A stretch of 64,000 bases of DNA, from contig JAADGJ010000010.1 in NCBI GenBank assembly GCA_013152435.1, forward strand, positions 13,911 to 77,910, given 5' to 3'. Both the position numbers and the translations under genes were made by a program. The notes under the pieces are model-generated. The model made no database searches, was not told the origin of the DNA, and saw only the letters and a program-made list of their open reading frames with translations. Below are positions 10,819 through 34,507 of the stretch, in pieces. Source of the DNA: Chloroflexota bacterium. GTDB lineage: Bacteria; Chloroflexota; Anaerolineae; DUEN01. How positions within the stretch are numbered: position 1 is the first letter of the stretch; each line of letters begins with the position of its first letter.

Positions 10819-10828
10819 CGTTCCCCCC

Positions 10829-13800
10829 TTATTCCTGGCTTATGGCGGGCATGAAGATCTGCACAGGAGGCCACTCGCCGACGGTGATGGTCACAGAGGC
10901 GCTGCCGGTCAAGCCATCGCTATCGATGGCGGTCAGGGTGATCGTGTGATAGCCTGGAGGCAGATCGGAGACCTCCAGGCTCGAACCGGAGCCCAGGTCG
11001 CCGCTGATGTCGGAGTGCCAGCGCAGCTGTGCATCCGCCTCGATCGGTCCATCCTCAATGTCCGTCCCATAACCCTTCAGATAGATCGGCGAACCCACGG
11101 GGAAGAAGGTCCCGGCCGTGGGGACGAGGATGCCCGCCAGGGGCGGCTTCCTCGGCACGGAGAAAACCCCATCGCTCTCATCGGCGGCGGTGTTCACCCC
11201 GTCGCTCGCCAGCACGCGCACCTTGGCCTGGTCGGAGCCGCCGATCTCTGATGTATCGACCGTATAGCTCGTCTCGGTCAGGTTCACGGCCATGGTGTGC
11301 CACGTCCCTCCGCCGTCGATGCTATATTGCAAAGTGTAGACGAGCGGGTCGCCGTCGGGATCGTTGCCATGCCAGCGTATTGTTATCGATCCGTCGAGCG
11401 CCTCGCCGCCGTTGGGATAGTCCATCGTGACCGTGGGCGGATTGGGGCTGACCTGGCGGGTGTCCAGGACCTTCTCACCGTGCAGAAGGACGATCGATCG
11501 CGTGCCGATTGGGAATGGCAGCACCTCTATCCAATAGCGCCGGGGCTCTGAGGTGTCGGAGTCGGCGATGTACTGCTGTGGCTCAAAGTAGCGCGTGAAC
11601 AGGACGTTGCCCGTCGCATCCCGCAGCTCCAGGCGGTAGGCACCCTCCCCCGGGGCATCGGCCGTGCCTACCGGGCGTCCTTCCACATAGGCGAATCCTA
11701 ACTCTCCTGTATCGGCCTCCACATCTACGAAGCCATTGATGAGCAGATAAGGTTGCTCCTGGTTGGTCCCCCGCGCAGCGCTGGACCCTGGGCGGATTAC
11801 CAGCTTTTTGAAGATCGCCTGATACGTGTATGGGCTGACCCAACCTGGCCAACAGTATGACATAAGATCATAGGTGGACGCCGGGTCATACACGCGCGGG
11901 GTAAAGCTGAAGACGTCGAATCCGAATTCGCCAATGGAAGAGAGCGGATAGGGGACACCTTGCGGATTCTTGTAGTTCGGATAGTTGGTGTCCTCACCGC
12001 TTGGATCCTTGCAATGTGGGTCAATGACTTTTCCTTTCTTGTCTCGCGCGCTGGGGGCATGTGCTCGCCCAAAGTTGTGGCCCAGCTCGTGTGCCATGGC
12101 GCGGCCGTTAAACGCTACCCCGGCTGCCACCGGCACCCTGGTTGAGCCTATTCCCGCGACGGCCAGTTTAGGGATGTTCTTGTCCACCAGCCCGTACCAG
12201 TTACGACGCGTATTGACAGAGCGGATCCGCAGCCAGTTCAGCTTGTCCAGTAGCGCCTCCCATCCCGCCCGCCTCGTCAGGTCATGCTTGAAGGGGAGGA
12301 CAGCGTAGCCCACCGGCCACCAGAGGCGAATCTGGGAAAGGGGGAAGGTCTTCTCCGTGTAGCGGGGCGTCTCGAACGCCGCCTGAAGGGGAGGTAGGTA
12401 GACGGTCGGTTTTTTCTGCCCCGCCGCCTGCGACTCATACCGTACGCGAACCATCACGATATCCAGTGGTCGCGTCTCCTGAAAGGTGACCGTCGCTTCA
12501 CGCCGATTATTGGTCAGGTCGCGTTCCGGGACCAGCTCTCCCGGGTTCAGATCGAAGACGAAGTGCATCCGTCCCCTGCTCCACCTGGAAGGTAGCTCAA
12601 AGTAGAAGCTGTGGTCAAGCCTCCCTCGCTGAGGATTGGTCCGGACGGTGATCAGCCTGTGAGGATGCCTTGGCTCCAGCCGGGCGATGAGAACCTTCGT
12701 CCCATTGCTGGCCACGGCATACACTTTCAGAACCGCAAATACCCCGCTTACAGACCCGCCCAAGGGCGAATTCGCCCTGACGTGCGCGCGCACGTAAGTC
12801 GGTCTGTTCTGCACCAAGGGGACGCTGTTGTTCAGATCCTGGATAGCCTGTGTGACTTCCAACGCCTGTATCTCCAGGTCCGGCAAGAGGTCTCGGCTGA
12901 ACTCGGAGGTGTTGCCCATGCCGTCCGTCGTCGTGAGCGTGAAGTATCTCCGTCTCCGTGCCACGGAGACGCTGTACTTGCCGGACGCGTCGGCCTGAAC
13001 GCTCGTCAGGAACTCCTCGCCCTCATCGGCATCATCAACGAAGACCTCCACGGTGCATTTGCCACAGGTGCTGCCCTCTAAGGTATACTGGCCGCCGGCG
13101 GACGTCACCCGGGTGACGGAGGGAGGGCTTAAGCCTTGATTTCCGCCTGACAGGAGGCGAATACCCCGACCCTCGTTTTTGAAGATGCTGTTGTGGGAGA
13201 TGGTATTGCGTATCGTATTGTGTCCTTCAATCCGGATGCCATCCCCCTTGTTGCCGGTGATCGTGTTCGCCATGCCCGACGAGGCCCCTCCGATCTGATT
13301 CATCTGGGCGCCGCCGGCGATGTATATACCGTGTGACCCGTTGGGAAGGGGGGCGGAGAAAGCTCCGATGCCTATGCGATTCCCCCACACCTTATTCCGA
13401 TCCGTGCCGACGTCGGTAATGGCCACGCCAAGTCGATTGTTCCCCGCGATCACATTCCCCGCGTCGGTATCTCTTCCCCCGATCTCATTCTCCTGAGCGC
13501 CGCCGGCAATGATCACGCCGTTGAGGTGATTGGGTATGGCAACTCGTCCCGTGAAATCGGTACCGATGTAATTGCCCAGCACCCGATTGCGCACCGTCCC
13601 CGTTCCGTAAATGTGTACCCCGTTGTCCTGGTTGCCGCTGATGATATTGTTCTCGAACAGATCAGTGCTGCCGATGATATTATCATGGGCGCCCGTGGCG
13701 ATGATCACGCCGGAGCCATCATTGGGGATGGCCATCTTCCCGGTGGCGTCGGTGCCGATGTAATTGCCAGTGACGGTGATGGCCGTGGAGGACTCCCAGA

Positions 13801-15961
13801 TGAGGATCCCATGGCGACCGTTTCCGCTGATGACGTTGCCCTCCGTATGGAACCCGCCGATGCGATGTTCTCTGCCGCGGGATATCTCGATCCCATCGCC
13901 GCCGTTACCCAAGTCCACATTGCCGCGCGGGTTCACGCCGATGCGGTTGCCGCGCACGACGTTGTCTCGTCCCGATTCGATGCGTATCCCATCCCCCATG
14001 TTGCCGCTGATGACGTTGGCAGAGAGCGCGCCAGGGGAGCCGACGGTGGTGCGACGGACGTTATCGAGATACACGCCGTCTCCGTGGTTGGGCAACGCGG
14101 TGGTGCCGAGGCGGTTCAGGCCAATGATGTTCCCCAGGATATAGGTCCTCTCAACGCCCGGTCCTCTGAGCTCGACGCCATGACTCAGGTTGCCGCTGAT
14201 CACGTTGCCCTCGCCATCGTTGGGGCCGCCGATGAAGTTGCTCCGAGCCTTCTGAGAGACGAGCACACCGATGCCGCCGTTGCCCAACGCCAGGTTGCCC
14301 TCTTTGTCGGTACCGATGACGTTCCCCCGCACGGAATTCTGGTCCGTGCCGGCGCCGGTGATCCATATGCCGCCGCTATCGTTGCCGCTGACTACGTTGC
14401 CGGGACCGATTTGATTCGCGTTGGCGCCGTCCTGGATGACGATCCCCCAACCGTGATTGGAGCGCCGCACCTCTCTGCCGGTGGGGTCCAGGCCGATGAT
14501 GTTCCGCTCTATCCGGTTCACCATGCTACCCGACCCGGCGATGAGCAGGCCGTGCTGCCCGTTCCCGCCGATCACGTTCCCCCGGATCAGGTTGTGGCTG
14601 GCGTTCTCGCTCAGGACCACGCCGATGCCGTTACCGGCCGGATTGCCGAGGGGGTCCAACCCCACGGTATTGGTGAGCACCTGATTGCTGGCCCCCTGGA
14701 TCCAGATGCCGTAATGCTCAAAGCCGGTGATGCTCAACCCCTGGATCACGACTTTGGTCCCCTCGACGATCAGGCCATCGCCGCCCGCGCCCAGGCGGGA
14801 TCCGTCGATCTGGATCTCGGGGCCGGCCGGGTTGGGGTCGCTGCCGATGAATCCCGCCTGACTGAAGCCATCTATGAGGAGGCCGGGCGCGGTCAGAGCG
14901 GGCAGGGTCGAGGTGACCTGGATGGTCCAGTAGCCGCCGGCCGGGTAGTAGCCCGGGTCCGAAGTGGGAATTCGGAACGTGATGTGCTTGACGAAATAGC
15001 GATTGGCCGCCTGAATGGCTTCGCGTAGGGAACAGTGCTGAAGCGTGCAGGCGCCATCGTCGCGATCGTCCGTAGTGTTCACCTCCCAGCGCAGTACGAA
15101 GGTCCAGCGAAGGCGGTAGGAGGCCGGCAGGACGGCCGTCCCGGGGTTCGCCCGAACGCCCACTCGGTAGGTCCCCCCGACCTCGGCCGGGTAGATGATG
15201 GCCTCCGCGCGGGTCCCGGGCGCGTCGGAGAACGCCACCTCCTCGCCGTTGGGGTCGAAGAGGACGAGAACGAGATCGATCGGCAGATCCGAGGGGGATG
15301 ATGCCGCCATCTCCGACACGCCGTCCACCTCGATCTGGAGGATCTGCCCGGGCGACACGTCGGGTAGCGCATAGTAATCCACGTCCTCCTCATGGCAGAT
15401 GTAGCTATCGACGGGCGCGTCAGGCTCGATGGACCATGCCTCCTCCGGGACATCGTTCGGCTCGTAGGGATCAGGGCAGGGAGCCGGGGTAGCGACCGAG
15501 TCCACGCGTAGGGTGTATGGGTTGGGTTGCTCGTCCTCCGTTCCCCAGACCACCGCGTAATACGTGCCCGCCTGATCCGCCGTGTGGACGATCTGTTCCG
15601 TTGTGGTCCCCGGGTTGGTCGAGGTGATGAGCACGGTCTGATCGGGCCCGTAGAGATCAAGGTTGCTATCCCATTCCATGCCGTAAAGGCTGATCGTGAT
15701 CTGCTGGCCCGTGGTCAGGGGAAAACGGAAGAAGTCGTTATCATCGGAATTGCATACGACGGCGTTGTATTCCACACCGAACTCCACCGGTGTGGCCTGG
15801 TCAAACCAGTTGTTGGGCTCGTAAGGATCGGTGCAGTCGGCGGGCAGGTGGGCCGTTGCCTCCCCATCTGGTGAGTCGCTTAGAACAACCGTACCGCCAA
15901 GGGCGAAGAGGACGAGGGGGAGGAGGAAGGCAACCAGCCATTGTGCGCGATGGAAGGACAT
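10829..15961 (-). CDS. Giant secreted multidomain metzincin-type zinc metalloprotease (1710 aa).
   Basis: Domain order read from the translation: signal peptide; two N-terminal PPC (pre-peptidase) domains (DPYEPNN...DDNDFFRF); CSLREA motif (TLQHCSLREAIQAAN); about 20 parallel beta-helix repeats (NVISGN.., GNRIG..); metzincin motif HELGHNFGRAH (12061..12093) plus Met-turn DLMSY; C-terminal Ig/PKD-like domains. The last residues are ...VQIFMPAISQE. RBS AAAGGAG. Confidence 0.85.
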   Translation of the reverse strand: MSFHRAQWLVAFLLPLVLFALGGTVVLSDSPDGEATAHLPADCTDPYEPNNWFDQATPVEFGVEYNAVVCNSDDNDFFRFPLTTGQQITISLYGMEWDSNLDLYGPDQTVLITSTNPGTTTEQIVHTADQAGTYYAVVWGTEDEQPNPYTLRVDSVATPAPCPDPYEPNDVPEEAWSIEPDAPVDSYICHEEDVDYYALPDVSPGQILQIEVDGVSEMAASSPSDLPIDLVLVLFDPNGEEVAFSDAPGTRAEAIIYPAEVGGTYRVGVRANPGTAVLPASYRLRWTFVLRWEVNTTDDRDDGACTLQHCSLREAIQAANRYFVKHITFRIPTSDPGYYPAGGYWTIQVTSTLPALTAPGLLIDGFSQAGFIGSDPNPAGPEIQIDGSRLGAGGDGLIVEGTKVVIQGLSITGFEHYGIWIQGASNQVLTNTVGLDPLGNPAGNGIGVVLSENASHNLIRGNVIGGNGQHGLLIAGSGSMVNRIERNIIGLDPTGREVRRSNHGWGIVIQDGANANQIGPGNVVSGNDSGGIWITGAGTDQNSVRGNVIGTDKEGNLALGNGGIGVLVSQKARSNFIGGPNDGEGNVISGNLSHGVELRGPGVERTYILGNIIGLNRLGTTALPNHGDGVYLDNVRRTTVGSPGALSANVISGNMGDGIRIESGRDNVVRGNRIGVNPRGNVDLGNGGDGIEISRGREHRIGGFHTEGNVISGNGRHGILIWESSTAITVTGNYIGTDATGKMAIPNDGSGVIIATGAHDNIIGSTDLFENNIISGNQDNGVHIYGTGTVRNRVLGNYIGTDFTGRVAIPNHLNGVIIAGGAQENEIGGRDTDAGNVIAGNNRLGVAITDVGTDRNKVWGNRIGIGAFSAPLPNGSHGIYIAGGAQMNQIGGASSGMANTITGNKGDGIRIEGHNTIRNTISHNSIFKNEGRGIRLLSGGNQGLSPPSVTRVTSAGGQYTLEGSTCGKCTVEVFVDDADEGEEFLTSVQADASGKYSVSVARRRRYFTLTTTDGMGNTSEFSRDLLPDLEIQALEVTQAIQDLNNSVPLVQNRPTYVRAHVRANSPLGGSVSGVFAVLKVYAVASNGTKVLIARLEPRHPHRLITVRTNPQRGRLDHSFYFELPSRWSRGRMHFVFDLNPGELVPERDLTNNRREATVTFQETRPLDIVMVRVRYESQAAGQKKPTVYLPPLQAAFETPRYTEKTFPLSQIRLWWPVGYAVLPFKHDLTRRAGWEALLDKLNWLRIRSVNTRRNWYGLVDKNIPKLAVAGIGSTRVPVAAGVAFNGRAMAHELGHNFGRAHAPSARDKKGKVIDPHCKDPSGEDTNYPNYKNPQGVPYPLSSIGEFGFDVFSFTPRVYDPASTYDLMSYCWPGWVSPYTYQAIFKKLVIRPGSSAARGTNQEQPYLLINGFVDVEADTGELGFAYVEGRPVGTADAPGEGAYRLELRDATGNVLFTRYFEPQQYIADSDTSEPRRYWIEVLPFPIGTRSIVLLHGEKVLDTRQVSPNPPTVTMDYPNGGEALDGSITIRWHGNDPDGDPLVYTLQYSIDGGGTWHTMAVNLTETSYTVDTSEIGGSDQAKVRVLASDGVNTAADESDGVFSVPRKPPLAGILVPTAGTFFPVGSPIYLKGYGTDIEDGPIEADAQLRWHSDISGDLGSGSSLEVSDLPPGYHTITLTAIDSDGLTGSASVTITVGEWPPVQIFMPAISQE

Positions 15962-16048
15962 GATCAGCTCCTTTCAGGACCCCCGTGGCATCCCGTGAGG
16001 GTCTCCCTCATCCGGCTAGTCCAACCGCGAGCGGCGCGTCGCATACGA

Positions 16049-18937
16049 TCACCCGCAAAGCGAGAACACGAGATAGCCCGCCGGACACACGATGGCCTGA
16101 TTCTCCTGCGTCGTGACGGCGATCCACTGGTCATCCGGGCTGAAGACGAGTCCCTGGAATGGGCCGCCCACGGGGAGAAGCTCAAGCCCTTGCTCCCCGC
16201 TGATGACCACATATGCCTCCGAGGAGCCAAGGGCGACCACGAGCTGCCCACCAGAAGAAAGCGCCAGCGTATGGATACTTTCCGGAGCGGGGATGCTGGC
16301 CGCGAGGGTTCCATCCACACGCCAGATGTGCAGCGCATAGCCCTCGTCGGTCGAGCCGTTGGTCAGGAACCCCCCGGGGTCGAGGAAGAGGAGCGTGTTC
16401 GGGTCGCCGGAGATCCCGGTTTTCACCGTGGCGACCGGTTCCCAGTCCTCTGTGCGCCAGATCTGTACCGTGCCCCCATAGGCGATAGCGACCAGATACG
16501 CGCCATCCGGCCCGAAGGCGACACCCTCGACGATGGGCGCGTGGACGCCTTCATACGGGAATCGGAGCTTCTGCACCACCGATCCGGTCTTCGCCTCGAT
16601 CACCGGCACCAGGCTCCCCTGGGCCGCCGAGACGGCCAGCGCGATCAGCCGGCCATCGGGGCTGAAGGCCAGGCCCATGATGCCGCCGAAGCTATCGCGA
16701 AAGGTCGCCGTGGGGGCGGCGTCCCCCTTCAGCAGCGCCGCCGTCTCCCACACGGTTAGATGATCCTGGAGATCGGCGGTGTAAGCTGTGGCCAGCAACG
16801 TCCCATCGGGGCTAAAGGCGATCTTACTGGCCTGGATAGGTTGAACGGCGAGCTGCTCAAAGGTTCGCCCATCGTAGAGGGCCAGGCGTGACGTGCCGGA
16901 CGAGCTATCCCAGAGGACCATCGCCACCCAGCGCCCCGCCGGGTCCCATGCCAGATCAAGGGGGCGCGTGCCTTCCGGGAGCGTAAGCGATGTGATCTCC
17001 TGCTCCACGGTCGATTCCGGCTGCGAGGTTGAGGAGAGATAGCGCCGGTCGTAGTACTCGCGGATCCTCTCCGGTGACCACCGGAGGCTTCGGAGCACTC
17101 GTAACACGGTCCCCTCGTGATAGCCCTCATTCCACAGGTCGGCTGGAGCCATCCAGAGGAAGTAGGCACGGATCCCTTGCTGCGGCTCCCAGAGTACCTC
17201 CAGGCCCTTACGTGTGCCGTCTTCGGAGGTAAACTCGGTGATGGTGACGGGGAGTCCCTGGGCATCCTCGCTCGTGTCCGTCTCGGCGGCCGGGCTCTCG
17301 CCGAAGGCTCGCTTTCGCAGCTCCTGAACGAACTGCTGGAAGATCTCCGCCAGGTCGGCGTCGGTGACGTCGGAATAGACGAACAGGAGCCCCTCGCCGG
17401 TCTGGTCGCTCTTAAACGCGTATCCGGTTGGCGGGTCGGTTAGCTCCTCCTCCTGGTCCAGCTGGGGGGGACGAGAGAAGGAGAAGAAACCCAAGGGCTC
17501 TTCATAAGGGGTCCACATGTTGAACTTTTTATGCACTCTGGGCGGGAACCAGGTGATTTCCAGTTCCTGCCACTGCTGCAGGCGTTGCTCCCAACGGTCC
17601 TTGGGCACGAGCCAGAAGCGGAGCAGGATGATGCCCCGATCTTCCTGGAGGCTGATCATCCCGCCGCGCTGCTCGGCCTCGGAGATCGCGTATGCGACGG
17701 CCACGCGCCCGCCCTCCGGGGCAGCTTGGGAGATGATCTCAGCATCGTCGCCGATCGTTGCGACGACCTCGGGGATGATCGCGTCCACCATCTCGCTCCA
17801 GGTGGCGTCATCCAGCGGCTGGCTGTCTACGGGGATGAACGAGATAGCCAGGGCCTCCGTATCCTCCGGGTTGCTGAAGATGTAGCCGTACTGGTTCTCG
17901 TCCGCGTTCTCCTCGACGACGCTGAGGTGCGCCGGATAGCGTATCGTGAACAGGCTGTTGGGGTCATAAGGATCGCCGAACTCGCTCCACCCCGAGGCTC
18001 CTTCGGGGGCAGGCGTGGGCGTGGGGGGCTCCACCTCCGCGCGCACGGTGAAGGTATAGGTCGCCACCTCCCGATCGTCGATGAGGAGCACCACCTTGTG
18101 TTCCCCTTCGGGCCATCCCTGCTCGGGCAGGTAGGAGAAGTAGAAGCCCGTGTCCTCGACGTTCTCCTGAGCTGTGATGGTGCGAGTGCCTGCCTCATCC
18201 AGTTGGCCGGACACATACCAGTGGGCTTCCAGCGTCGAGTGGAGTCCCAGGTCCACCCGGCCGACCACGAACACTTCCTCTGTAGGTGTGAAAGTGTCCG
18301 TGGGCTCGATCGGCTGGAAGTCCTCCGTCGCCCCCCGGGCCAGGACAGCCTGGCGCACCTGGGAGGGGATGGCCTCAGGCGGCGGGATGATGATGAACTC
18401 GTAGGATCCGGCCGGAGATCCGTTCAGGAGAATCTCCGCTCGGTAAAGATCGCTGATGGGGAATGGCTTCTCATGGGTGAGGGTGAAGCCCACGTTGGTG
18501 TTGCCCCCGATCACGAAGACCAGGCCCTGCTTCTTGCGCTCCTCGGCCAGATCCACGGTAGCCGATGCGATCTCCTGATCCTGATAGAGGAAACGGGCGG
18601 TCACCTGCCCTCCTTTGGGAGTGCCCTTCAGCTTGATGGAGAGGTAGATCGTCTCTTCCGGTGTAAACGTGTTGCCGGGATTGACGGGGGCGAATTCCTC
18701 CGTCAGGCCGTGGGCGAAGGTAGCCTCCAGGATCTTCAGAGCAGTCTGTTCCTCTGCGACGGGGGTGGGAGTGGGGACGATCTCCTCTTCCTCAGGCGCG
18801 GGCGTCTGCACGGCCGCCTCCCCGGCCGGAGCAGGCGTCGGCGTGGCCGGCTCCTCCTCACCGCCGCAGGCTGCCAACCCGAATGCAAGCGACAAGGCCA
18901 GGAACACGGTCAGAAGGTACATACGCATCTCTCGCAT
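16049..18937 (-). CDS. Lipoprotein with duplicated N-terminal domains and a C-terminal WD40/TolB-like beta-propeller (962 aa).
   Basis: Signal peptide with lipobox LAACGG and a TP/E-rich linker. Repeats FSPDGTLLATA, FSPDGRLIALA, FGPDGAYLVAIA and FSPDDQWIAVT are typical of beta-propeller blades. RBS GGAGGA. Confidence 0.75.
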   Translation of the reverse strand: MREMRMYLLTVFLALSLAFGLAACGGEEEPATPTPAPAGEAAVQTPAPEEEEIVPTPTPVAEEQTALKILEATFAHGLTEEFAPVNPGNTFTPEETIYLSIKLKGTPKGGQVTARFLYQDQEIASATVDLAEERKKQGLVFVIGGNTNVGFTLTHEKPFPISDLYRAEILLNGSPAGSYEFIIIPPPEAIPSQVRQAVLARGATEDFQPIEPTDTFTPTEEVFVVGRVDLGLHSTLEAHWYVSGQLDEAGTRTITAQENVEDTGFYFSYLPEQGWPEGEHKVVLLIDDREVATYTFTVRAEVEPPTPTPAPEGASGWSEFGDPYDPNSLFTIRYPAHLSVVEENADENQYGYIFSNPEDTEALAISFIPVDSQPLDDATWSEMVDAIIPEVVATIGDDAEIISQAAPEGGRVAVAYAISEAEQRGGMISLQEDRGIILLRFWLVPKDRWEQRLQQWQELEITWFPPRVHKKFNMWTPYEEPLGFFSFSRPPQLDQEEELTDPPTGYAFKSDQTGEGLLFVYSDVTDADLAEIFQQFVQELRKRAFGESPAAETDTSEDAQGLPVTITEFTSEDGTRKGLEVLWEPQQGIRAYFLWMAPADLWNEGYHEGTVLRVLRSLRWSPERIREYYDRRYLSSTSQPESTVEQEITSLTLPEGTRPLDLAWDPAGRWVAMVLWDSSSGTSRLALYDGRTFEQLAVQPIQASKIAFSPDGTLLATAYTADLQDHLTVWETAALLKGDAAPTATFRDSFGGIMGLAFSPDGRLIALAVSAAQGSLVPVIEAKTGSVVQKLRFPYEGVHAPIVEGVAFGPDGAYLVAIAYGGTVQIWRTEDWEPVATVKTGISGDPNTLLFLDPGGFLTNGSTDEGYALHIWRVDGTLAASIPAPESIHTLALSSGGQLVVALGSSEAYVVISGEQGLELLPVGGPFQGLVFSPDDQWIAVTTQENQAIVCPAGYLVFSLCG

Positions 18938-19014
18938 CTTTCTTTCCTCCGTTCGAACTCTGATTTCTCCACATCTCTCACCAGGGGAGACATCTTTCTC
19001 TGGTGGCTCTCACA

Positions 19015-22941: not shown

Positions 22942-22955
22942 AATGTCCCTCCCCG

Positions 22956-24017: not shown

Positions 24018-24046
24018 GATCCCTCTCCTTATCTTCAGAGGTGGAG

Positions 24047-25876: not shown

Positions 25877-25919
25877 AGACGGATTCTCCTAGGGTCGCTG
25901 CAAGAAAGCGACAGAACCG

Positions 25920-27950
25920 TTATTGCCGCCGTATGATGGGCAGATAGATGTGCCGCGAAGGCGTCGGGGGGGCGGCTCCGCCGCTCAGCGCGATCGTAAG
26001 GGAGTAGGTCTGGTTGGCGCTGAAACCTGCGTAGGAAGTGACCGTGACGTAATAGAAGCCGCTCCCGGTCGCCACGTGTTCAATACGCTCGTCAGCATTG
26101 CCCGAGTTGGTAGAGGTGGCCACCTGGTTCTGACCAGGATCGCTCAGCCACAGATCGTAATCCGTGTTGGCGGGGATGTTCGTCAGGTCGATGATGATGC
26201 GCTGGCCCGCACTCGCGTTGAATTTGAAGTAATCGATGTCCTGATCGGAGCAAATGGCTGCTCGCAGGGTGGTTCCGGGCGTGATGCTGCGGGCCTGGCT
26301 GAAGTTGTCGTTGGGCTCGTAGGCGTCCGCACAGGCGAGCCTGGGCAAGACCGCCAGAACGGAGCCAAAGCTATCCCATTCTTCGGCTTGGTCTTCGATG
26401 CCATGGCTGTCTTGCGTCCACCACTGATTGTTTTGTGCGGTCAGGCCCTGAGTTGAGCCGTAGATGACCTGCACGGCTCCCGCGTTCTGGGTGTTGCCCA
26501 GATCTTCATAAGGGACGCCAACTGCGAGATCATCGTAGCCATCCCAATTGAAATCGCCCGCGGCCAGGGATTGCCCGAAGCTGTCGTTCGCCTTGGCCCC
26601 GTCGTTGTTCAGGCCGGGGGAGCCCTGATACCATAGCTGGGAACCGGAATCTGTCAGCCCTTGGTCGGTGCCGTAGATGATGATCACAGCTCCCGTATCG
26701 TTCACACTATTCATTTCTTCGTCGCGGACGCCTACGGCCAGGTCGTCGTATCCATCGCCGTCGAAATCGCCCGCGGCCAGGGCATAGCCGAATTCTTCAT
26801 CCTCTTCCGCGCGGTCCGGCAAATTGCCCGTGTCCTGCGTCCACCGCTGGTCGGGTGTGGCGAGGCCCTTGCTTGAGCCGTAGAGGACGTGCACAACGCC
26901 GGCTTCGCTCACCTTCCCGGCATCTTCGTTATGCGCTCCGATGGCCAGGTCGTCGTATCCATCGCCATCGAAATCACCCACGGCCAACGCCTCGCCGAAA
27001 TCGACATCCTCCTTCGGCTGGCCTGAGATGCCGTTATCGCTTTGATTGAACAGTTGATTACCTGTGGCCGTAAGCCCCTGTGCAGAGCCATATATCACCT
27101 GCACTGCGCCGGCGTTGGGCTCGCCCGTCACTTCCTCACCACGAATACCGATCGCCAGGTCGGCATACCCATCACCATTGAAGTCGCCAGAGGCCAGAGC
27201 GTCGCCGAAGAAGTCCCCATCACTGGCCTCCCCCAACATGCCGGGACTATCCTGATGCCACATCTGGTTGCCTGTGGCGGTCAGACCCTGGGCCGACCCG
27301 TAGAGGATGTGCACCACCCCCAGTGCGTCGGCGTTGTCGGCCTGGAAGCCCTCCGATGGATTGCTGATGGCCAGGTCCGTGTAGCCATCGCCATTGAAAT
27401 CGCCCGCGGCCAGGGCTTCACCGAAACTGTCGTAGTCTTCGACGCTATCGAGCACGCCCGGCGAGTTCTGGTCCCAAAGCTCACTGCGTTGCCCCACGCC
27501 GGTGGCTGATCCGTACAGGACGATGACCGCGCCGCCCTTCTTGCCCCCGGCTGGGGTCTCTCCATAGGCGCCGATGGCCAAATCAGGATAGCCATCGCCA
27601 TTGAAATCGCCCGCGGCCAGGGCGTTGCCGAAGAAGTCCCCTTTTTCCGCGTTCTCGGGGATGCCGGGGCTATCCTGGGTCCAGAATTGGCTGCCGGTGG
27701 CCGTGAGACCGGCGTTGGATCCGGGAATGGCATGAACGGCCCCGGCCATACTGACGTTGCCGACGGCCTCAGAGTCCACACCCACCACCAGGCCGTCCTG
27801 GAAGGTAAATCGGGGTGCGTTCGTTGCAACAGGCTGAGTCGGAGAGAGGAGAGTGCTACCGACCGCCACGCGCGCACCGAAGATCAGGATCACCATGCAG
27901 AGGGTGACCGAGACAGCGCCGATAAAGTGAATCCGTCCTTTTCGTGTCAT
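25920..27950 (-). CDS. Secreted FG-GAP (integrin-alpha-like) repeat protein with a C-terminal PPC domain.
   Basis: About 8 repeats of GDFNGDGY(A/D)DLAIG. Then the PPC module CADAYEPNDNF...ICSDQDIDYFKF. It ends ...RHIYLPIIRRQ. Start ATG 27950 has a GGGAGG RBS; the track's upstream start at 28001 is rejected. Confidence 0.8.
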   Translation of the reverse strand: MTRKGRIHFIGAVSVTLCMVILIFGARVAVGSTLLSPTQPVATNAPRFTFQDGLVVGVDSEAVGNVSMAGAVHAIPGSNAGLTATGSQFWTQDSPGIPENAEKGDFFGNALAAGDFNGDGYPDLAIGAYGETPAGGKKGGAVIVLYGSATGVGQRSELWDQNSPGVLDSVEDYDSFGEALAAGDFNGDGYTDLAISNPSEGFQADNADALGVVHILYGSAQGLTATGNQMWHQDSPGMLGEASDGDFFGDALASGDFNGDGYADLAIGIRGEEVTGEPNAGAVQVIYGSAQGLTATGNQLFNQSDNGISGQPKEDVDFGEALAVGDFDGDGYDDLAIGAHNEDAGKVSEAGVVHVLYGSSKGLATPDQRWTQDTGNLPDRAEEDEEFGYALAAGDFDGDGYDDLAVGVRDEEMNSVNDTGAVIIIYGTDQGLTDSGSQLWYQGSPGLNNDGAKANDSFGQSLAAGDFNWDGYDDLAVGVPYEDLGNTQNAGAVQVIYGSTQGLTAQNNQWWTQDSHGIEDQAEEWDSFGSVLAVLPRLACADAYEPNDNFSQARSITPGTTLRAAICSDQDIDYFKFNASAGQRIIIDLTNIPANTDYDLWLSDPGQNQVATSTNSGNADERIEHVATGSGFYYVTVTSYAGFSANQTYSLTIALSGGAAPPTPSRHIYLPIIRRQ

Positions 27951-28080
27951 CTTGCCTCCCTGCCTTGAAAACAGGTTCTCCGACCGATTCTCGTGGTTCA
28001 CGGCGTCCCGTTAGGGGCACGGTGACTGTCATCAAAAGAGATGCCTTTCCCTTGCTCTTGCCGTCTACCGTCTGCCGGAT

Positions 28081-31000
28081 CTAGTTAGGGGATGCGTCAG
28101 ACTGCGGCCCCCGGACGCCGGCGGGCGTGGGCCATGCGTGCGGGACGGGCTTGGGCGAGGTCCCCTCGTGTCGCTCCAGGGGAGCGATCGAGTCCTCGGC
28201 CGGAAGGCCATATTCCCGGCTGGCGTGGCTCTGCGCGGCCGTGATGGGCTCGTCCCAGGCGATGGCCCGGAAATCGTCGAAGTGGACGATGCCCGGCGCG
28301 TAGCTGGAGGGCCAGTTGATCAGCCCAAAGTATCCTTGGCCGAGCAGGGAGACGTCGCTCAGGGTCTGCAGGTATTCATCGTTCACGAAGAGGTGAATCT
28401 TCGTCCCATCACGCACGGCCTTGAGCGTGTTGGGCGAACTGCCCGGCCGGATGGCTGAGGAGGGAAGCCACGCATCCCCCTCCGCGTCATCCCATGTGAG
28501 CGCCTGCCAGTTGCCCTGGTAGATCGCCAGGGCATACTCCATCGTATCGGGGATGATCAGGAACGCGTACAGGGAGTTGAACGATCCATCCTCGCCGAAG
28601 ATCAACCCGTACGCGATGGGGTAGTTGCTCGGCCGATGTCGGGCGGTCACCTGGAAGCTCCCGTTGGGATACGGGCCGATAGGAGCCCGGAAGACGCATG
28701 CCCAGTCGGGCTGGGTAGCGGTCACGTACTCCCCACCCTCATACGTCGCCTGGCAGACCTCTGTGCCGCTGGTGGGCCATCCGCTGCCGGAACTGCTGAA
28801 GTCGTCCTCCATGATCACCGTGGGGATGGTGATCTTGAAGTCGTCGAAGTAGGAGGTGGCCGATCCGGTGTTGTAGTACGCCCAGGTGGCCACGCCTACG
28901 TACCCGTTGCTGGGGAAGGCATTGTCCTTCACGGTGACCAAATCCACATCGTTGACATAAAGTGTGATCTGGTCTCCCTGGCGACGTACCTTGAGGACAT
29001 TGACCTGGTCGCCCGTTTGGATGGCGGGTGAGGCTCCCGCGTCGGTGACGTTGGTCCACGTGCCGTTATCGTATCGTTGCAGCAGGTAGGTCTGGTATGC
29101 AGCATCCACCCAGAAGACGTAGAACTGCTGGATGCTGTTGGGGGAGTCCAGGCCAAAGACCAGGCCGTAGACGCTGCCATCACCGGCGGAGGACTTGGCG
29201 GCTTTCACCTGGAAGACGCCATCCACCCGGGGTTGCGCCGGAGCTGCGGAGAGGCATACCTGTCCTAGCTGCAGGACGGCTACGCCATACATGCCGCTCA
29301 CGTAGGCATACTGGCACACCCCTGCCGCCCCGGAGGCCCAGCCGCTGGCCGGATTGGCGAAGTTGTCGTAGTAGACGCGCGGTGAAGGGGGCTGCGTCGG
29401 TGTAGGTGTGGGGCCGACGGGCGTCGGGGTCGGCGTCGGCGTGGCTGTGGCCGTGGGGGTCGGTGTACTGGTGGGCAGGAGCACAGCTGTGGCCGTGGGA
29501 GTGGGTGTGGGATAGCCGGTGGGGGTTGGTGTGGCCGTGGGAGCAGATGTAGGTGTAAATGTAGGCGTGCTGGTTGGGGTGGGGGTGAACTGCCCCATGT
29601 TCTTCCCCACCAGCGGGAGATGGAGGAGGGTGGACGGCGTTGTGCCGGGCCGGGTCGGCGTGGGGGTGGGGGCAGAGGTGCCCCCGGAAAGCTGCACGCG
29701 ATATACGCTGCGCCCGTGGGTTGCGGCCACGAGCACGTTCGCCTTCGCGTTCAGGACCAGATCCACGACTGCCACGGCGGGCAGGCCGTTATTGAAGGGC
29801 TCCCAGGTGCGCCCGTCATCACGGGTGCGGAAGACGCCGGTATCCGTGCCGATGTAGATCGTGCCGGGTGCGTCCGGATCCAGGGCGATGGAGAGGGCGG
29901 GCACGTCCGGCAGATTGCCGCTGATGTCCCGCCAGGTGGCGCCTCCGTCCGTGGTCTTGAACACGTGCCCGGGCTGCCCGGGAGTGTGGACGTTGAAGCC
30001 GTTATACACCACGTACGCCACGCGGGGATTTCGGGAGTCTACGGCGATGGCGGAGACCCAACGATTGGGTAGGGGAGGCTTGGTCACGTTCGTCCAGCTC
30101 CCTCCCGTGTTAGTGGTCACCTGCACGTTGCCGTCCGATGTGCCCACGTAGATGGTGCGGGGATCTGAGGGGGCCACGGCGATGGCGGAGATGCTGCCGG
30201 GCCGAGTTCCTCCTTTGGAGAGATCCCCGCTAATGGGCGTCCACGTATCGCCGCGATCGGTGGTCCGGTAGAGGCGATGCGTTCCGAAGTAGATTACGCC
30301 GGGCGTGGACGGATCCAGAGCGAACGGCGCGTAGAAGAGCGCCCGGTCCTGCTGGCCGATGCCCTCCGTCTTAATGGGCCAGTCATCCACGGGGGCGCTC
30401 CCGTTCTTCTCGTTGCGCTGGAAGGAGATGCCGAACCGGGTGCCGTAGTAGATGTTGGGATTGAAGGGATCGATGGCCACCCGGCCTCCGTCGCCCACGT
30501 CCAGCGCATCCCATACCAGCGCCCCTGTGGTCCTCGCCTTGTTGTTATCCTGCATGCCGCCGAAGATGATGTTGGGATTCGTGGGGTGGACGCCGATGCC
30601 CGTGAACTGGAGGGTGGCCAGGCCGTTGTTTCGATTCACCCATGTGCGCCCGCCGTCGGCGGATCTCCACACGCCGCCGTCGGTGCCCACCCATACCACG
30701 TTCGGATTTTTGGGATCGAACACGATGGCGTGGACGTCGGGATGGAGGGTGTGCTCGGGCGCGTCGTTAGGGCTCAGGTCCTGCCAGGTGGCCCCGCCGT
30801 CCGTGGACCGAACGACGACCTCCTTGATGCGCGTGACCGGCTGCCAGATGTAGTTGGCGGCCCCGCCCAGGTACACGATGTTAGGGTTTGTGGGGTGGAT
30901 GGATACCACGTTGTCGTACCAGCACTGGCCCATGCAGTAGTTGGGCGCGTTGCGCAGCCAGGTCCACGAATCGCCGCCGTCCGTGGTCTTGAAGACGATG

Positions 31001-32181
31001 CCGCCCTGGTATCGGTTGGGCTCCTCGTATTGATAGCCCGCGTAGAGGACGTTGGGGTTGGAGCGGCTGATATCCAGGGCGATCATCCCGAAGTTGCGCC
31101 CCGGCAGGCCGTTGGTCAGCCGCACCCAGCTCGCCCCGCCGTCGGTGCTGCGGAAGATGCCGATATTCCAGAAGGCCGCGTACAGGATATTGGGGTTGGT
31201 GGGATGCATGAGGAGGGCGGAGGCCCCGTAGCAATCCTGGCAGGCCAGGAGGGTCTGCCAGGTGCGCCCGCCGTCCGTGGATCGGTAGATGCCGCGCAAA
31301 GGACGCGCCGGGCCCGCGACGCCCGTGAAGGAGGTGGCCGCGTAGAGCAGGTTGGGCTGGCGTGGATGGACGATCAGGGCCCGGATGCCCAACCCGGTGA
31401 AGGCGTCGGCGGCCAGATGCTGCCAGGTGCGCCCGCCGTCCGTGGATTTGAGGATCCCCATGCCGTAGTAGTTGTCCAGGCCGGGGGTGGGCTCTCCGGT
31501 GCCCACGTAGATCGTGTCCGGATTGGAGGGATCCAGCGTGATGGTGCCGACGGCCAACGTGGGCTGGTCATCGGTGAGCGGAACCCAGCTGTCGCCGCCG
31601 TCCGTGGTCTTCCACACGCCTCCCAGCGCCGTGCCCAGATAGACCACGTCGCTGTTGCGCGGATCGATGGCGAGGGCGGTGACGCGGCCGCTGACCTTCA
31701 CCTTGTGACTGCCCATCTGAGAGTCTCGCATGCTTGCGGGGCCGATGTTCTCCCAGCGCGGCAGGGCTGCGGCTTTCCGCAGCATACGCGACATCTCGAT
31801 CGTCTGGCGGATGGCCTTGGGATACGCCCCCTTGGGCAGGGTATCCTGCGGATAGGCGCGTTGGGCCACGAAGAAGTGCAGACGCAGGCGTGGCTTCCCC
31901 GTCTCGTCCACCCCCGGCGGTATAGGCGGTCCCCCTGGTGGGACGAGCCGCCAGGAGGGAGGCCCACCCGCGGGCGTGGGGCGGGCGCGGCAGGCGAGGC
32001 AGTTGGGGCCATCGTCCGGGCGCCACGCGTCGGGGGCCGGGACATGCGCGAGCGAGTCGACCATGTAGGGCACGATGGGCTCGGAGAGGATCCCCTGATC
32101 CGAGCGCGTAAAGATGGCCAGCACAGCCAGAACCACGGCCAGCGAAAGGTATACGGGCAGACGTCGATCAGCGCCTCTCAT
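28081..32181 (-). CDS. Large membrane-anchored/secreted BNR/Asp-box repeat protein (GH74/sortilin-like twin beta-propellers) with two C-terminal concanavalin-like lectin/hydrolase domains (1366 aa).
   Basis: N-terminal hydrophobic anchor. More than 10 Asp-box motifs (S/T)xDGGxTW. A long TP linker (29395..29595). Two homologous ~180-aa C-terminal domains (YYDNFANPASGW.. / IMEDDFSSSGSGW..) of the DUF1080/LamG-like type. RBS GGAGGA. Confidence 0.75.
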   Translation of the reverse strand: MRGADRRLPVYLSLAVVLAVLAIFTRSDQGILSEPIVPYMVDSLAHVPAPDAWRPDDGPNCLACRARPTPAGGPPSWRLVPPGGPPIPPGVDETGKPRLRLHFFVAQRAYPQDTLPKGAYPKAIRQTIEMSRMLRKAAALPRWENIGPASMRDSQMGSHKVKVSGRVTALAIDPRNSDVVYLGTALGGVWKTTDGGDSWVPLTDDQPTLAVGTITLDPSNPDTIYVGTGEPTPGLDNYYGMGILKSTDGGRTWQHLAADAFTGLGIRALIVHPRQPNLLYAATSFTGVAGPARPLRGIYRSTDGGRTWQTLLACQDCYGASALLMHPTNPNILYAAFWNIGIFRSTDGGASWVRLTNGLPGRNFGMIALDISRSNPNVLYAGYQYEEPNRYQGGIVFKTTDGGDSWTWLRNAPNYCMGQCWYDNVVSIHPTNPNIVYLGGAANYIWQPVTRIKEVVVRSTDGGATWQDLSPNDAPEHTLHPDVHAIVFDPKNPNVVWVGTDGGVWRSADGGRTWVNRNNGLATLQFTGIGVHPTNPNIIFGGMQDNNKARTTGALVWDALDVGDGGRVAIDPFNPNIYYGTRFGISFQRNEKNGSAPVDDWPIKTEGIGQQDRALFYAPFALDPSTPGVIYFGTHRLYRTTDRGDTWTPISGDLSKGGTRPGSISAIAVAPSDPRTIYVGTSDGNVQVTTNTGGSWTNVTKPPLPNRWVSAIAVDSRNPRVAYVVYNGFNVHTPGQPGHVFKTTDGGATWRDISGNLPDVPALSIALDPDAPGTIYIGTDTGVFRTRDDGRTWEPFNNGLPAVAVVDLVLNAKANVLVAATHGRSVYRVQLSGGTSAPTPTPTRPGTTPSTLLHLPLVGKNMGQFTPTPTSTPTFTPTSAPTATPTPTGYPTPTPTATAVLLPTSTPTPTATATPTPTPTPVGPTPTPTQPPSPRVYYDNFANPASGWASGAAGVCQYAYVSGMYGVAVLQLGQVCLSAAPAQPRVDGVFQVKAAKSSAGDGSVYGLVFGLDSPNSIQQFYVFWVDAAYQTYLLQRYDNGTWTNVTDAGASPAIQTGDQVNVLKVRRQGDQITLYVNDVDLVTVKDNAFPSNGYVGVATWAYYNTGSATSYFDDFKITIPTVIMEDDFSSSGSGWPTSGTEVCQATYEGGEYVTATQPDWACVFRAPIGPYPNGSFQVTARHRPSNYPIAYGLIFGEDGSFNSLYAFLIIPDTMEYALAIYQGNWQALTWDDAEGDAWLPSSAIRPGSSPNTLKAVRDGTKIHLFVNDEYLQTLSDVSLLGQGYFGLINWPSSYAPGIVHFDDFRAIAWDEPITAAQSHASREYGLPAEDSIAPLERHEGTSPKPVPHAWPTPAGVRGPQSDASPN
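29395..29595 (-). repeat. About 200-bp hexanucleotide coding repeat for a roughly 65-residue Thr-Pro-rich linker.
   Basis: (GGCGTN/GGTGTG/GGGGTN)n on the plus strand; the peptide is TPTPTSTPTFTPTSAPTATPTPTGYPTPTPTATAV..TPTPTATATPTPTPTP. Confidence 0.8.
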
Positions 32182-32212
32182 CTCGTATCCTCCGAATCCA
32201 CGACGGCCTTTC

Positions 32213-33028
32213 TCAGTCTATCCACGCGGTTTCCATCAGGTTGTACCCGGCGATCTGGAGGATCGCCAGGGATAGCAGCCAGATCTCCGCCTCTCTGGAG
32301 GGGGACCCCTCCAACGTGATGGCGGGGGTAAGAGCTCTCCTTCGCAAGTGAATGACGCCCTTCAGCCGGGCTGGAGGGCAGGCCAGATGACCGATGGTCT
32401 CCCCCCGGATCGTGACCGGGTAGGAGCGTTCTCGAGTATCACGCAAGCGGGTGATGGGGCCGATGCTGAAGCGGATAGGGGACCTCTTCGGCCGGGGTGC
32501 GCTGCCGATGGGCTGTTCCTCTGCGTCGAGGAGTATGCCGTCAAGGCGGATGCTTCCCCATGGCTCTCCGTCCACCTGGATCATGACGCTATCTGGCGTG
32601 ATGCGGTAGGCGAAGGACTGTTCGGTCGTGCGAGCCAGAAGATGCCCATCGGGTCGGCGGGCGCCGCGCACTTTCAAACCGAAGGCGACCCACGATGGCC
32701 CATCGGGATCGCTTCGGCTGGGGATGGTGCCCCGCGCGTTCAGATCCCTGCCGATCCTCCACCAACGAGCTCTCCAGCCGGCGGCGAGATCGGTCAGACC
32801 CTCCGAAGACCAGGGGCGGAGCTGAGCGACCATTTCGTCTAACTGCTCCTGCAGCTGCTCCCACCCTTCGGCCAGGGTAGTGGCATCCGGGGGACGCCAT
32901 TGGCGATGGATGGTGTACATCATGAACACCGCCAGCGCGATGAGCCCCAGCCCCCCGATGCAGAAGGGAAGCACGCAGCCGGCGATCGTCAGGAGTTCGG
33001 CGAAGGTCCTCGTCCCGCCCACGGGCAC
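32213..33028 (-). CDS. Uncharacterised membrane protein, paralog of 10090..10818.
   Basis: 271 aa with an N-terminal TM helix. Alignable throughout with the 10090..10818 product (see that entry). Probable GTG start at 33028 with a GAGGGAG RBS. Confidence 0.65.
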   Translation of the reverse strand: MPVGGTRTFAELLTIAGCVLPFCIGGLGLIALAVFMMYTIHRQWRPPDATTLAEGWEQLQEQLDEMVAQLRPWSSEGLTDLAAGWRARWWRIGRDLNARGTIPSRSDPDGPSWVAFGLKVRGARRPDGHLLARTTEQSFAYRITPDSVMIQVDGEPWGSIRLDGILLDAEEQPIGSAPRPKRSPIRFSIGPITRLRDTRERSYPVTIRGETIGHLACPPARLKGVIHLRRRALTPAITLEGSPSREAEIWLLSLAILQIAGYNLMETAWID

Positions 33029-33037
33029 TATCTCCCT

Positions 33038-34507
33038 CTATCCTTTCTTCACCATCACCGGCAGGAAGTAGCGATGGATTTTCGTCTGCTGGCCCGCCGG
33101 ATCGTACTCGTAGGCGCCGATATCGCAGACCGCGGAGCCGTTGCCATCGCCGTCCAAGGGGCGAGCCACGCCGCGTTGGTCGGTGGCAAGGCAAGTGGTG
33201 TTCAAACCGGCATCTACGGCGGGACTGTTACTTGGGAGAGCGTGCGTGGGGGTGGCACCGCCGTTATCCGCTAGCGGGAGCAGGCGTGGGTCTTTGCCGG
33301 TGATATTCCCGGTCGATGTGCCGCCGATGGTGCACTGGCTGGTCACCGTTTGGATCAGGTTATGGCCCAGGGAGGTGAGCTTGCCCCAACAATCCCGATC
33401 CCCGTTGGGGTCCTGGTTCCCGGCGATGAGGGTGTTGGTCAGCCGCACCACCGGCGAAGTCTCTTCAGAGGCGGAGAGCTCGTTGTAGACCCCGCCGCCA
33501 CGCCCCAGCCCGTCTCCGTCGAGATCTGCCGTGTTGTTCGCAATGGTCACGTTGGCCAGGGATACGGCGCCCTGGACGCCGATCGCGTTGCTGTTATAGA
33601 TCCCGCCACCGCGCCCATTCGTGCGGTTTCCGCTGATGGTGCTGTTGGCCAGCGTGAGCGTCCCACCGCTGTTCCGAATTCCACCTCCGCCTTCGTCATA
33701 GGCTACCGCCTCCGCGAAGTTCTCACTGAACGTGCTGGTCGCGATGGTGGTGGTTGAGTATACGTTGTTGAGGAGCGCGCCGCCCTCGCGTAGGGCTGAG
33801 TTCCCCCGGAAGAGGCTGTTTCGCACGATGACCGCATTGCCGTTGTTCGCCAGCCCCCCCCCGTTCATCCCAGCGTAGTTGTTCAGAAGCTGGACGTTTT
33901 CCAGTGTGGCGGAGGCGTTGTCGGTGACCTGAATGCCGCCGCCATTGCCGTCGCTCCGGTTATCGGTCAGCAGGACGTTCTTCACGAGGATCTGAGCCCG
34001 GCCAGAGACCTGAATGCCGCCGCCATGGGGTGGGTTGATGGCATGGCCGTTGCGGATCGTCATACCGGAGATCGTGACGAGGAAGGCCCCGGATGAAACC
34101 CCTACGATGTCGAAGACGCGATCGCTTTTGTTCCCGTCGATGATGGTCTTTCCGATCCCCGCGCCGTTGATGGCCAGGCTGGCTGTGATGTCCAGGTCGC
34201 CCATTGCGGCCGCATCCTCGTCGACCCCGGCGATGGTCAATTTGTAAATGCCCGCCGGCAGGGTGATGATATCGGCGCCGCTCCCCGCGGGGCAGGCGTC
34301 AACGGCGGTGTCCGTGTTGGCGGCCCGAATGGCCTCCCGTAAGGAGCAATCTCCATCGCTGTTCAACTCATCGTCGGTGGTGTTCACGGTGATCGTGGTC
34401 GCGGCCTGTGCGATGGGGGAGGGCAGTGCGGGCCAGGACCAGACGAGTGAGGACAGGATCAAGAGGGTGAGAAGCATCTTCGTGCGACTACCTTTCCTGA
34501 GCTGCAT
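33038..34507 (-). CDS. Secreted CSLREA-domain parallel-beta-helix repeat protein (489 aa).
   Basis: Signal peptide; N-terminal NTTDDELNSDGDCSLREAIRAAN (the CSLREA motif); GGGI-type beta-helix repeats; C-terminal ...DQRGVARP...CDIGAYE. It ends ...HRYFLPVMVKKG. RBS AAGGAGG is 7 nt before the ATG. Confidence 0.8.
   Translation of the reverse strand: MQLRKGSRTKMLLTLLILSSLVWSWPALPSPIAQAATTITVNTTDDELNSDGDCSLREAIRAANTDTAVDACPAGSGADIITLPAGIYKLTIAGVDEDAAAMGDLDITASLAINGAGIGKTIIDGNKSDRVFDIVGVSSGAFLVTISGMTIRNGHAINPPHGGGIQVSGRAQILVKNVLLTDNRSDGNGGGIQVTDNASATLENVQLLNNYAGMNGGGLANNGNAVIVRNSLFRGNSALREGGALLNNVYSTTTIATSTFSENFAEAVAYDEGGGGIRNSGGTLTLANSTISGNRTNGRGGGIYNSNAIGVQGAVSLANVTIANNTADLDGDGLGRGGGVYNELSASEETSPVVRLTNTLIAGNQDPNGDRDCWGKLTSLGHNLIQTVTSQCTIGGTSTGNITGKDPRLLPLADNGGATPTHALPSNSPAVDAGLNTTCLATDQRGVARPLDGDGNGSAVCDIGAYEYDPAGQQTKIHRYFLPVMVKKG

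Follow-up and report, generated by a model that had tools for sequence, protein, structure and literature searches.

Every characterised C-terminal sorting signal is defined by a hydrophobic region of transmembrane (TM)-helix length, which is the fourth of eight attributes in a published checklist of small C-terminal sorting signals (10.1101/2023.06.07.544157). Two NCBIfam models, NF050076.1 ('sort_motif_YLP'; 11 positions, cut-off 15 bits) and NF053834.1 ('ultrashort_CTERM'; 10 positions, cut-off 10 bits), are both described as 'YLP-box putative sorting motif-containing protein', and full-text searches, including searches for sorting signals in Chloroflexi, found no paper on the motif. In a 64,000-nucleotide stretch of a Chloroflexota bacterium (contig JAADGJ010000010.1, positions 13,911 to 77,910; hereafter the window), six proteins with signal-peptide-like N-termini end in tails that share with the catalogued YLP-box the core hydrophobic-Tyr-Leu-Pro-hydrophobic x3-basic and its place at the extreme C-terminus of signal-peptide-bearing cargo, yet are divergent in sequence (YFLPVMVKKG, IYIPHVMR, IFMPAISQE and FFPTMLRE followed by seven residues). 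The six proteins are best taken as new, divergent members of this catalogued motif class. An earlier note, made from the sequence of the window, had proposed an undescribed sorting or processing tag: a shared modular tag with a role in sorting or anchoring is still the best-supported reading, but the claim of novelty falls, as NF050076 and NF053834 already model the motif. What the window adds is modest comparative detail, namely divergent members, replacement of the YLP-box by LPxTG-like signals on homologous cargo and the removal of candidate partner genes.

Checklist attributes 1, 2, 3, 6, 7 and 8, or six of the eight, are found in the tails (terminal position, multiplicity with six in a 24-kb part of one contig, signature residues, signal peptides, cargo proteins unrelated to one another, and a different signal or none in other lineages), and attribute 5, two to five basic residues at the end, is weakly represented, a single Arg or Lys being typical in homologs (10.1101/2023.06.07.544157). 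Like the LPXTG signals of sortases, the YLP-box is a C-terminal tag on apparently Sec-exported surface proteins, often follows a Pro/Thr-rich spacer, contains a Leu-Pro dipeptide and takes the same position on homologous cargo; unlike them, it has no Thr-Gly scissile pair, no TM helix and at most one or two basic residues, and no TIGR01167 (LPXTG) match was found on the window proteins. With the PEP-CTERM/exosortase, GlyGly-CTERM/rhombosortase and MYXO-CTERM/myxosortase systems it shares the six checklist attributes and overlapping cargo families, but it is ~10 residues long, without a TM segment and with the Arg cluster reduced. The C-terminal domain (CTD) of type IX secretion is a folded beta-sandwich of ~70–100 residues, whereas the YLP-box is a ~10-residue element predicted to be disordered, and no Por-secretion CTD match was obtained. 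In function alone, the YLP-box would resemble the eukaryotic CAAX box, an ultrashort C-terminal motif (a tetrapeptide) that directs membrane or surface association without a TM segment of its own and is processed by Rce1/CPBP-family proteases, a family related to myxosortases; it differs in having no Cys, in being exported rather than cytoplasmic and in having no linked CPBP gene here.

Six C-terminal tails in one gene cluster

Ten tightly packed genes run along the minus strand at 10090..34507, and six of their products carry tails (Table 1). All six tails translate exactly as the earlier note gave them, each with a stop codon directly after it. The literal expression offered there, [KRH]x[IF][YF][LIM]P[VIAT][ILM], fits one of the six, and the motif lies 2–9 residues from the stop rather than 3–7. 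Counted from the conserved Pro (P), the distance to the stop is 4–6 residues in five tails and 11 in the sixth. The window tails are loose around this Pro (Tyr or Phe at P-2; Leu, Ile, Met or Phe at P-1), and their basic residues are RR, KK, R, R, H and none, with R, K or H at P+4 in five of six; in RKIYIPHVMR the basic P+4 residue is the last one, and hence the exact C-terminus. By a hydropathy heuristic, applied in place of a dedicated predictor, an N-terminal hydrophobic segment after a charged start was seen in all six cargo proteins, in agreement with the signal peptides claimed for them, and a 19-residue, TM-length hydrophobic stretch at the C-terminus in none. The statement that neither a TM helix nor a basic tail follows the motif therefore stands for the helix and gives way in part for the basic tail, as P+4 is basic in five of the six window tails and is R or K in 48 of 66 homologs.

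The core pattern [IYFTVL][YF][LIMF]P.[ILMV], which was fitted after the tails had been seen, matched the 31 window proteins six times at the C-terminus and three times internally, where 0.059 C-terminal matches were expected (P ~6e-11). A six-frame scan of the whole 64 kb with a loose pattern gave nine matches, five of which sit 2–4 residues before the stops of long, real genes. Because the core pattern was fitted post hoc, an independent matrix of ten columns (P-5 to P+4) was built from 60 distinct tails outside the window, with the window protein and its two closest relatives excluded. Among 17,546 window-protein positions, HRYFLPVMVK, RHIYLPIIRR and IKIYLPVLLH took ranks 1, 2 and 3, respectively; RKIYIPHVMR, RQTFFPTMLR and VQIFMPAISQ scored lower (Table 1). 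The training tails span 10.3–31.6 bits, and the last two window tails, at 5.9 and 1.9 bits, fall below that range.

These two weakest tails, on the 1308- and 1710-amino-acid (aa) proteins, align with each other within paralogous C-terminal modules, and homologs of the module carry canonical boxes at the same position (PRIYLPAILKDHS, PRVYLPLVLKATW, PRIYLPLVRR and SRVWLPVVLKG). In four homologs of the 1710-aa protein (P0124, P0125, P0126 and P0128) the canonical box follows the same Ig-like domain, and other homologs of the module end in a TM segment plus basic residues. All six tails were therefore taken as one family, with four recognisable and two degenerate members. The observation of six tails is real and confirmed.

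The internal copy that the earlier note placed in a BNR protein exists, but at 29593..29631; the quoted span, 29591..29641, is out of frame. This stretch, TLLHLPLVGKNMG, scores 10.5 bits, while chance matches in cytoplasmic proteins score 11.4, 10.8 and 10.2, so that by score it is not statistically distinguishable from chance. A propeller domain and a Pro/Thr linker immediately precede it, and beyond it come another long Pro/Thr linker and more domains; this layout would fit a fossil C-terminus, that is, a former YLP-tailed end that was possibly fused to a downstream gene.

Conservation, modularity and lineage of the motif

Among 120 homologs of the 489-aa protein, 66 end in [HY][WR][VLI]-Y-L-P-[LIV][IV][LQ][RK] plus 0–2 residues. 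The Pro lies 4–6 residues from the end in 59 of these 66 tails; aligned on it, Leu occupies P-1 in 61 and Tyr P-2 in 45 (Phe in 10), with [HY][WR] preferred further upstream and a usually single R or K at P+4. Over a wider set of 123 distinct YLP-tailed proteins, the tail stops exactly at the basic residue in 54%, 0–2 residues follow the basic position in 112, and R or K is terminal in 65; what stands at the very end otherwise varies, both in the kind of residue (R, K, P, Q, S, H and others) and in how many there are. The canonical homolog tails are matched by the NCBIfam models at 12.6–17.9 bits, among them that of P0125, which is homologous at full length (37% identity) to the C-terminal module of the 1710-aa protein.

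The distance from the last element of the fold (CDIGAYE) to the Pro varies from 6 to 1033 residues, and a linker with at least 50% Pro/Thr/Ser directly precedes the box in 34% of the 123 proteins, compared with 2% of controls. Two window tails show such spacers: GGAAPPTPS precedes RHIYLPIIRRQ in the 676-aa protein, and TPTPTPTGMPG precedes IKIYLPVLLHM in the 353-aa protein. In an AlphaFold2 model of the 489-aa protein (predicted local distance difference test (pLDDT) 89.7, predicted template modelling score 0.87), residues 475–489 have pLDDT <50 and no secondary structure. The tail as a part of the cargo fold was ruled out by this model together with the variable spacing. The six tails use differing synonymous codons and are followed by unrelated DNA, which places selection at the protein level and excludes a DNA repeat or terminator. 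The motif is thus protein-level, modular and terminal.

To survey its distribution, one genome per species was scanned, giving 78 loci with 489-aa homologs and 992 called genes, with a YLP tail scored at 9 bits or more. The tail was found on 23 of 38 homologs of the 489-aa protein from Anaerolineae and Chloroflexia (Anaerolineales, Ardenticatenaceae, Caldilineaceae, Thermoflexales, Promineifilum, Chloroflexus, Herpetosiphonaceae and Brachytrichaceae) and on 7 of 12 from unclassified Chloroflexota, and on none of 6 from Dehalococcoidia or 13 from other phyla. The nearest relative of the source metagenome-assembled genome (MAG) is itself a Caldilineae MAG. In the Anaerolineae/Chloroflexia loci, matrix matches of at least 14 bits occur 38 times at C-termini and 3 times internally, a ~700-fold difference per position; the earlier note had named a lack of such enrichment as grounds for rejecting the motif, and the outcome favours it. 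No C-terminal match at this level was found in Dehalococcoidia or other phyla among the same 78 loci. Altogether 53 of the 992 genes carry a YLP tail, often in tandem arrays of three or four, and 12 of these 53 proteins lie outside the CSLREA family used as the search query.

Three further tails were noted separately. Locus L079 (labelled Alcaligenaceae) and locus L076 (Anaerolineales) have nearly identical C-termini, …CDIGA[VF]E[ST]GSAGDPRW[TL]WLP[SN][LV]AN[GS]AAP, and L052 (Thermodesulfobacteriota) has a weak YLP-like tail, AWVPVLLE; these cases suggest mis-binned contigs in public MAGs.

On homologous cargo, the YLP-box is interchangeable with other C-terminal signals. Of the six Dehalococcoidia homologs, four terminate with a TM segment and an Arg cluster; LPPTG, LPDTG or LPRTG stands before these in the three whose tails were read, and LPLTG was recorded as a further form of the motif on Dehalococcoidia homologs. 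Further homologs without a YLP-box have dockerin-like ends or stop right after the last domain. As a side observation, the LPxTG-like tails (L015, L028 and L072; P0027, P0136 and P0138; Dehalococcoidia and others) score 15–20 bits against GVDTG_CTERM (cut-off 29) and 14.3 bits against LPXTG_anchor (cut-off 15.9), every NCBIfam sorting-domain match being below its cut-off; they may represent a lineage-specific variant of the sortase signal.

Cargo genes and their neighbourhood

Table 1. Positions of the tails, cargo genes and neighbouring features in the window
Feature	Coordinates	Strand	Description
YLP-box tail HRYFLPVMVKKG	33041..33076	-	489-aa protein; 19.1 bits, rank 1 of 17,546 positions
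YLP-box tail RHIYLPIIRRQ	25923..25955	-	676-aa FG-GAP and PPC protein; 18.8 bits, rank 2
YLP-box tail IKIYLPVLLHM	22959..22991	-	353-aa PPC-domain protein; 15.9 bits, rank 3
Divergent YLP-box tail RKIYIPHVMR	24050..24079	-	609-aa PD40/TolB-like propeller protein; 7.9 bits
Degenerate, extended YLP-like tail RQTFFPTMLRELPLGAP	19018..19068	-	1308-aa PPC/HExxH protein; 5.9 bits; 7 residues after P+4
Degenerate YLP-like tail VQIFMPAISQE	10832..10864	-	1710-aa PPC/CSLREA/beta-helix/HExxH protein; 1.9 bits
Internal YLP-like stretch TLLHLPLVGKNMG	29593..29631	-	residues 851–863 of 1366-aa BNR/sortilin protein; translation confirmed; membership doubtful
Cargo gene, 489 aa, NOZ26612.1	33038..34507	-	CSLREA_Nterm, Chlam_PMP repeats; choice-of-anchor Q NF041518 at residues 406–469
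Cargo gene, 676 aa, NOZ26609.1	25920..27950	-	FG-GAP repeats and PPC; start codon confirmed by exact GenBank match
Cargo gene, 609 aa, NOZ26608.1	24047..25876	-	weak PD40 and TolB-propeller matches; exact GenBank match
Cargo gene, 353 aa, NOZ26607.1	22956..24017	-	PPC domain; ATG 29 nt past upstream stop codon; exact GenBank match
Cargo gene, 1308 aa	19015..22941	-	PPC domain; ATG 14 nt past upstream stop, behind ribosome-binding site
Cargo gene, 1710 aa, NOZ26604.1	10829..15961	-	PPC, CSLREA_Nterm, Beta_helix, NosD; exact GenBank match
Paralogous C-terminal module, 1710-aa protein	10829..12100	-	last 420 residues; HExxH
Paralogous C-terminal module, 1308-aa protein	19015..20286	-	last 420 residues; HExxH
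Small membrane protein	10090..10818	-	40% identical to its paralog; directly downstream of tailed gene
Small membrane protein	32213..33028	-	40% identical to its paralog; directly downstream of tailed gene
BTAD/AAA/TPR (or LuxR-type) regulator	34991..38449	+	
AIR-synthase-like gene	8746..9834		flanks the secreted-protein cluster
GH38 mannosidase gene	41802..44933		flanks the secreted-protein cluster

The folds that precede the tails are unrelated (beta-helix, FG-GAP, PPC, PD40 propeller and HExxH module); the 489-aa protein gave a 'rhombotarget A' match beside CSLREA_Nterm. After each stop, a ribosome-binding site and the next gene start follow within ~10–30 nt, and from this spacing the true starts of two over-long open reading frames were set at 22941 and 24017. 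An exact look-up in GenBank placed five of the proteins and confirmed four start calls; they are entered there as 'CSLREA domain-containing protein' or 'hypothetical protein', and none is called YLP-box. The 1308-aa protein has no exact record, so its start is inferred.

The last 420 residues of the 1710- and 1308-aa proteins are paralogous at 33% identity. In this module, Ig-like domains come after an HExxH motif (AHELGHNFG and AHEIAHCLG); no domain, peptidase or other, was assigned to it with confidence by Pfam, with two sub-threshold matches in the last ~190 residues of the 1710-aa protein, and it may be an unclassified metalloprotease module. The mature parts of three of the six cargo proteins (1710, 1308 and 353 aa) start with a common PPC-domain opening, C[TP]DPYEPN[ND]WF.QAT, which points to probable local duplication and module shuffling within the cluster. 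The secreted-protein cluster as a whole spans 10829..40251. In the same interval, the closest relative (L002; Caldilineae MAG DUEN01000065.1) has only an integrase, a PD40 protein, a WD40 lipoprotein and a truncated small membrane protein, which places the array of YLP genes in an expanded, variable region.

The two small membrane proteins of the cluster belong to an unannotated family, for which an exhaustive profile search returned 145 clusters and a word-indexed search 2 relatives. Members are ~250 aa long and combine a TM helix at the N-terminus with a beta-rich domain and, at the C-terminus, a conserved 'E..WLLALAILQ' helix; an AlphaFold2 model (pLDDT 88) had no match in the PDB better than E = 0.1 and no protease-like fold. 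Next to the ortholog of the 489-aa protein in L001 (61% identity) the membrane protein is lacking, its truncated copy in L002 stands beside a gene without a tail, and members in L083–L088 have no YLP-tailed neighbour, one of them following a gene whose product ends in NTG, which we take to be a phosphoenolpyruvate carboxylase C-terminus. The 5-kb surroundings of YLP-tailed genes in 32 YLP-positive loci contained no member of the family. Two tandem copies occur on the metagenome contig L083.

For a census of neighbours, the proteins of the 992 genes were clustered by BLAST, and the 150 genes within 5 kb of YLP-tailed genes were searched with Pfam. Recurring neighbours were confined to large BTAD/LuxR-AAA-TPR regulators, just as frequent next to homologs that lack a YLP-box, and to a few Tad-like and SCO4226-like proteins. 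A regulator of this type, the one gene family that recurs next to CSLREA beta-helix genes, adjoins them in 23 of the 78 loci (L005–L082) in addition to the window, with or without a YLP tail on the homolog, which suggests that the pairing of regulator and cargo is conserved independently of the type of anchor. TadE/TadG-like pilus-assembly genes (Pfam Tad and TadE) lie a few kb from YLP-tailed genes in L017, L021 and L041 (Anaerolineales/Chloroflexota).

Possible roles of the tail

The best explanation of the six tails is that they are local, partly degenerate copies of an ultrashort linear motif carried by secreted proteins of filamentous Chloroflexota. We favour, at slightly better than even chances, a role of the YLP-box as a surface-retention signal that is read by a factor encoded elsewhere. 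The cargo would be exported through Sec via its N-terminal signal sequences; the tail would stay unstructured, held off the folded cargo by the variable, often Pro/Thr-rich spacer, as the structure model and the spacing indicate; and a trans-acting envelope factor would read it as a peptide, one factor serving many proteins, and keep or attach the tailed protein at the cell surface. The tail would thereby take the place of the LPxTG-like motif, TM segment and Arg cluster found on homologous Dehalococcoidia cargo. What suggests retention or attachment is this exchange, together with the 'choice-of-anchor' domain, Pro/Thr spacers resembling stalks and cargo of adhesin- and protease-like types. 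As the tail cannot span a membrane, its recognition must differ from that of the substrates of sortase, exosortase, rhombosortase and myxosortase.

Several points weigh against this reading. No sortase, exosortase, rhomboid or CPBP gene, nor any other recognising enzyme or receptor, was found in the window, and among the genes up to 5 kb away from YLP-tailed ones in the 32 YLP-positive loci no protease, sortase, rhomboid, CPBP or exosortase recurs. Where characterised signals have a hydrophobic region of TM length, the tail has only some three hydrophobic residues beyond the Pro. MAG labels and, for the most part, a single cargo family underlie the taxonomic pattern. The six window tails, searched as 20–27-residue peptides, gave no reported match to the NCBIfam models under a search that drops matches above ~E = 0.1 (~12 bits), so that scores of 10–12 bits are invisible; under the same filters the canonical tail RVYLPIILKNH also went unreported. 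NCBIfam itself words the sorting role as 'putative', the support being comparative, and the two degenerate tails may mean that the constraint is relaxed in this genome. The presence of several YLP genes per locus and the lack of a recurrent enzyme neighbour, taken together, fit a one-to-many system with its factor encoded elsewhere, and a dedicated recognition enzyme is what we infer. It is possible, though less likely than not, that the YLP-box represents a surface-sorting signal of a new class: an enzyme or receptor specific to wall-bearing, filamentous Chloroflexota would recognise the tail outside the membrane and would fix proteins to the wall, the sheath or the S-layer through chemistry not related to that used by sortase, exosortase, rhombosortase or myxosortase.

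The lack of a partner gene near YLP genes would also be expected if the tail acted as an enzyme-free anchor, its hydrophobic core and basic residue (VYLPLIL-R) adhering without a covalent bond to the membrane's outer face or to an anionic polymer of the wall or sheath; the hydrophobicity of the tail, the R or K end in 65 of 123 proteins and spacers suited to a stalk rising from an anchor point agree with this. We nevertheless consider it unlikely. Conservation is sequence-specific rather than merely compositional (Leu in 61 and Tyr in 45 of 66 tails, and [HY][WR] upstream), seven hydrophobic residues broken by a Pro should partition only weakly into a membrane (an estimate rather than a computed value), and a motif confined to two classes within a phylum would more typically go with a receptor that co-evolves with it.

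A signal for processing or turnover, with the tail as the site of a tail-specific or PDZ-type protease or as a removable pro-segment that controls maturation, release or degradation, appears improbable too. The motif is tied to a free C-terminus (in 112 of 123 proteins the basic position is followed by 0–2 residues), the tail is predicted to be disordered, and recognition of hydrophobic C-termini by PDZ proteases is established. Such recognition, however, anchors on the terminal residues, which vary here; the replacement of the tail by LPxTG-type anchors on homologous cargo argues for anchoring rather than degradation; and tail-specific proteases are widespread, whereas the motif is lineage-restricted.

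The earlier note had put forward the small membrane proteins at 10090 and 32213 as the sorting or processing factors. Both stand directly downstream of YLP-tailed genes, are 40% identical paralogs and belong to a real family of ~145 clusters, yet a role as partners has become very improbable: the protein is missing beside the 61%-identical ortholog and truncated in the nearest relative, family members elsewhere (L083–L088) have no YLP-tailed neighbours, none lies within 5 kb in the 32 YLP-positive loci, and the confident AlphaFold2 model is without a PDB match. That the tail has no function as a tag, being a chance or compositional coincidence, a DNA-level 3′-end element or the last strand of the cargo fold, would suit the two weak tails (5.9 and 1.9 bits) but can practically be dismissed in view of the C-terminal enrichment (P ~6e-11 in the window, ~700-fold in related loci), the varying synonymous codons, the unrelated downstream DNA and preceding folds, the variable spacers and the unpacked tail in the AlphaFold2 model.

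A retention signal read by a factor encoded elsewhere thus remains the reading that we prefer. Characterised bacterial signals depend on a TM segment, by which the substrate is presented to a processing enzyme embedded in the membrane. The YLP-box has no TM segment, yet by comparative criteria other than the TM region and the basic cluster it behaves like such a signal. In practice it is a marker for surface and secreted proteins in MAGs of Anaerolineae and Chloroflexia, in which divergent copies such as these six appear unlabelled by current annotation. Sediments, hot springs and wastewater sludge are rich in members of the host phylum, whose surface biology has hardly been studied; if the YLP-box is a true sorting signal, the machinery behind it would attach proteins to a monoderm-type envelope in a new way.

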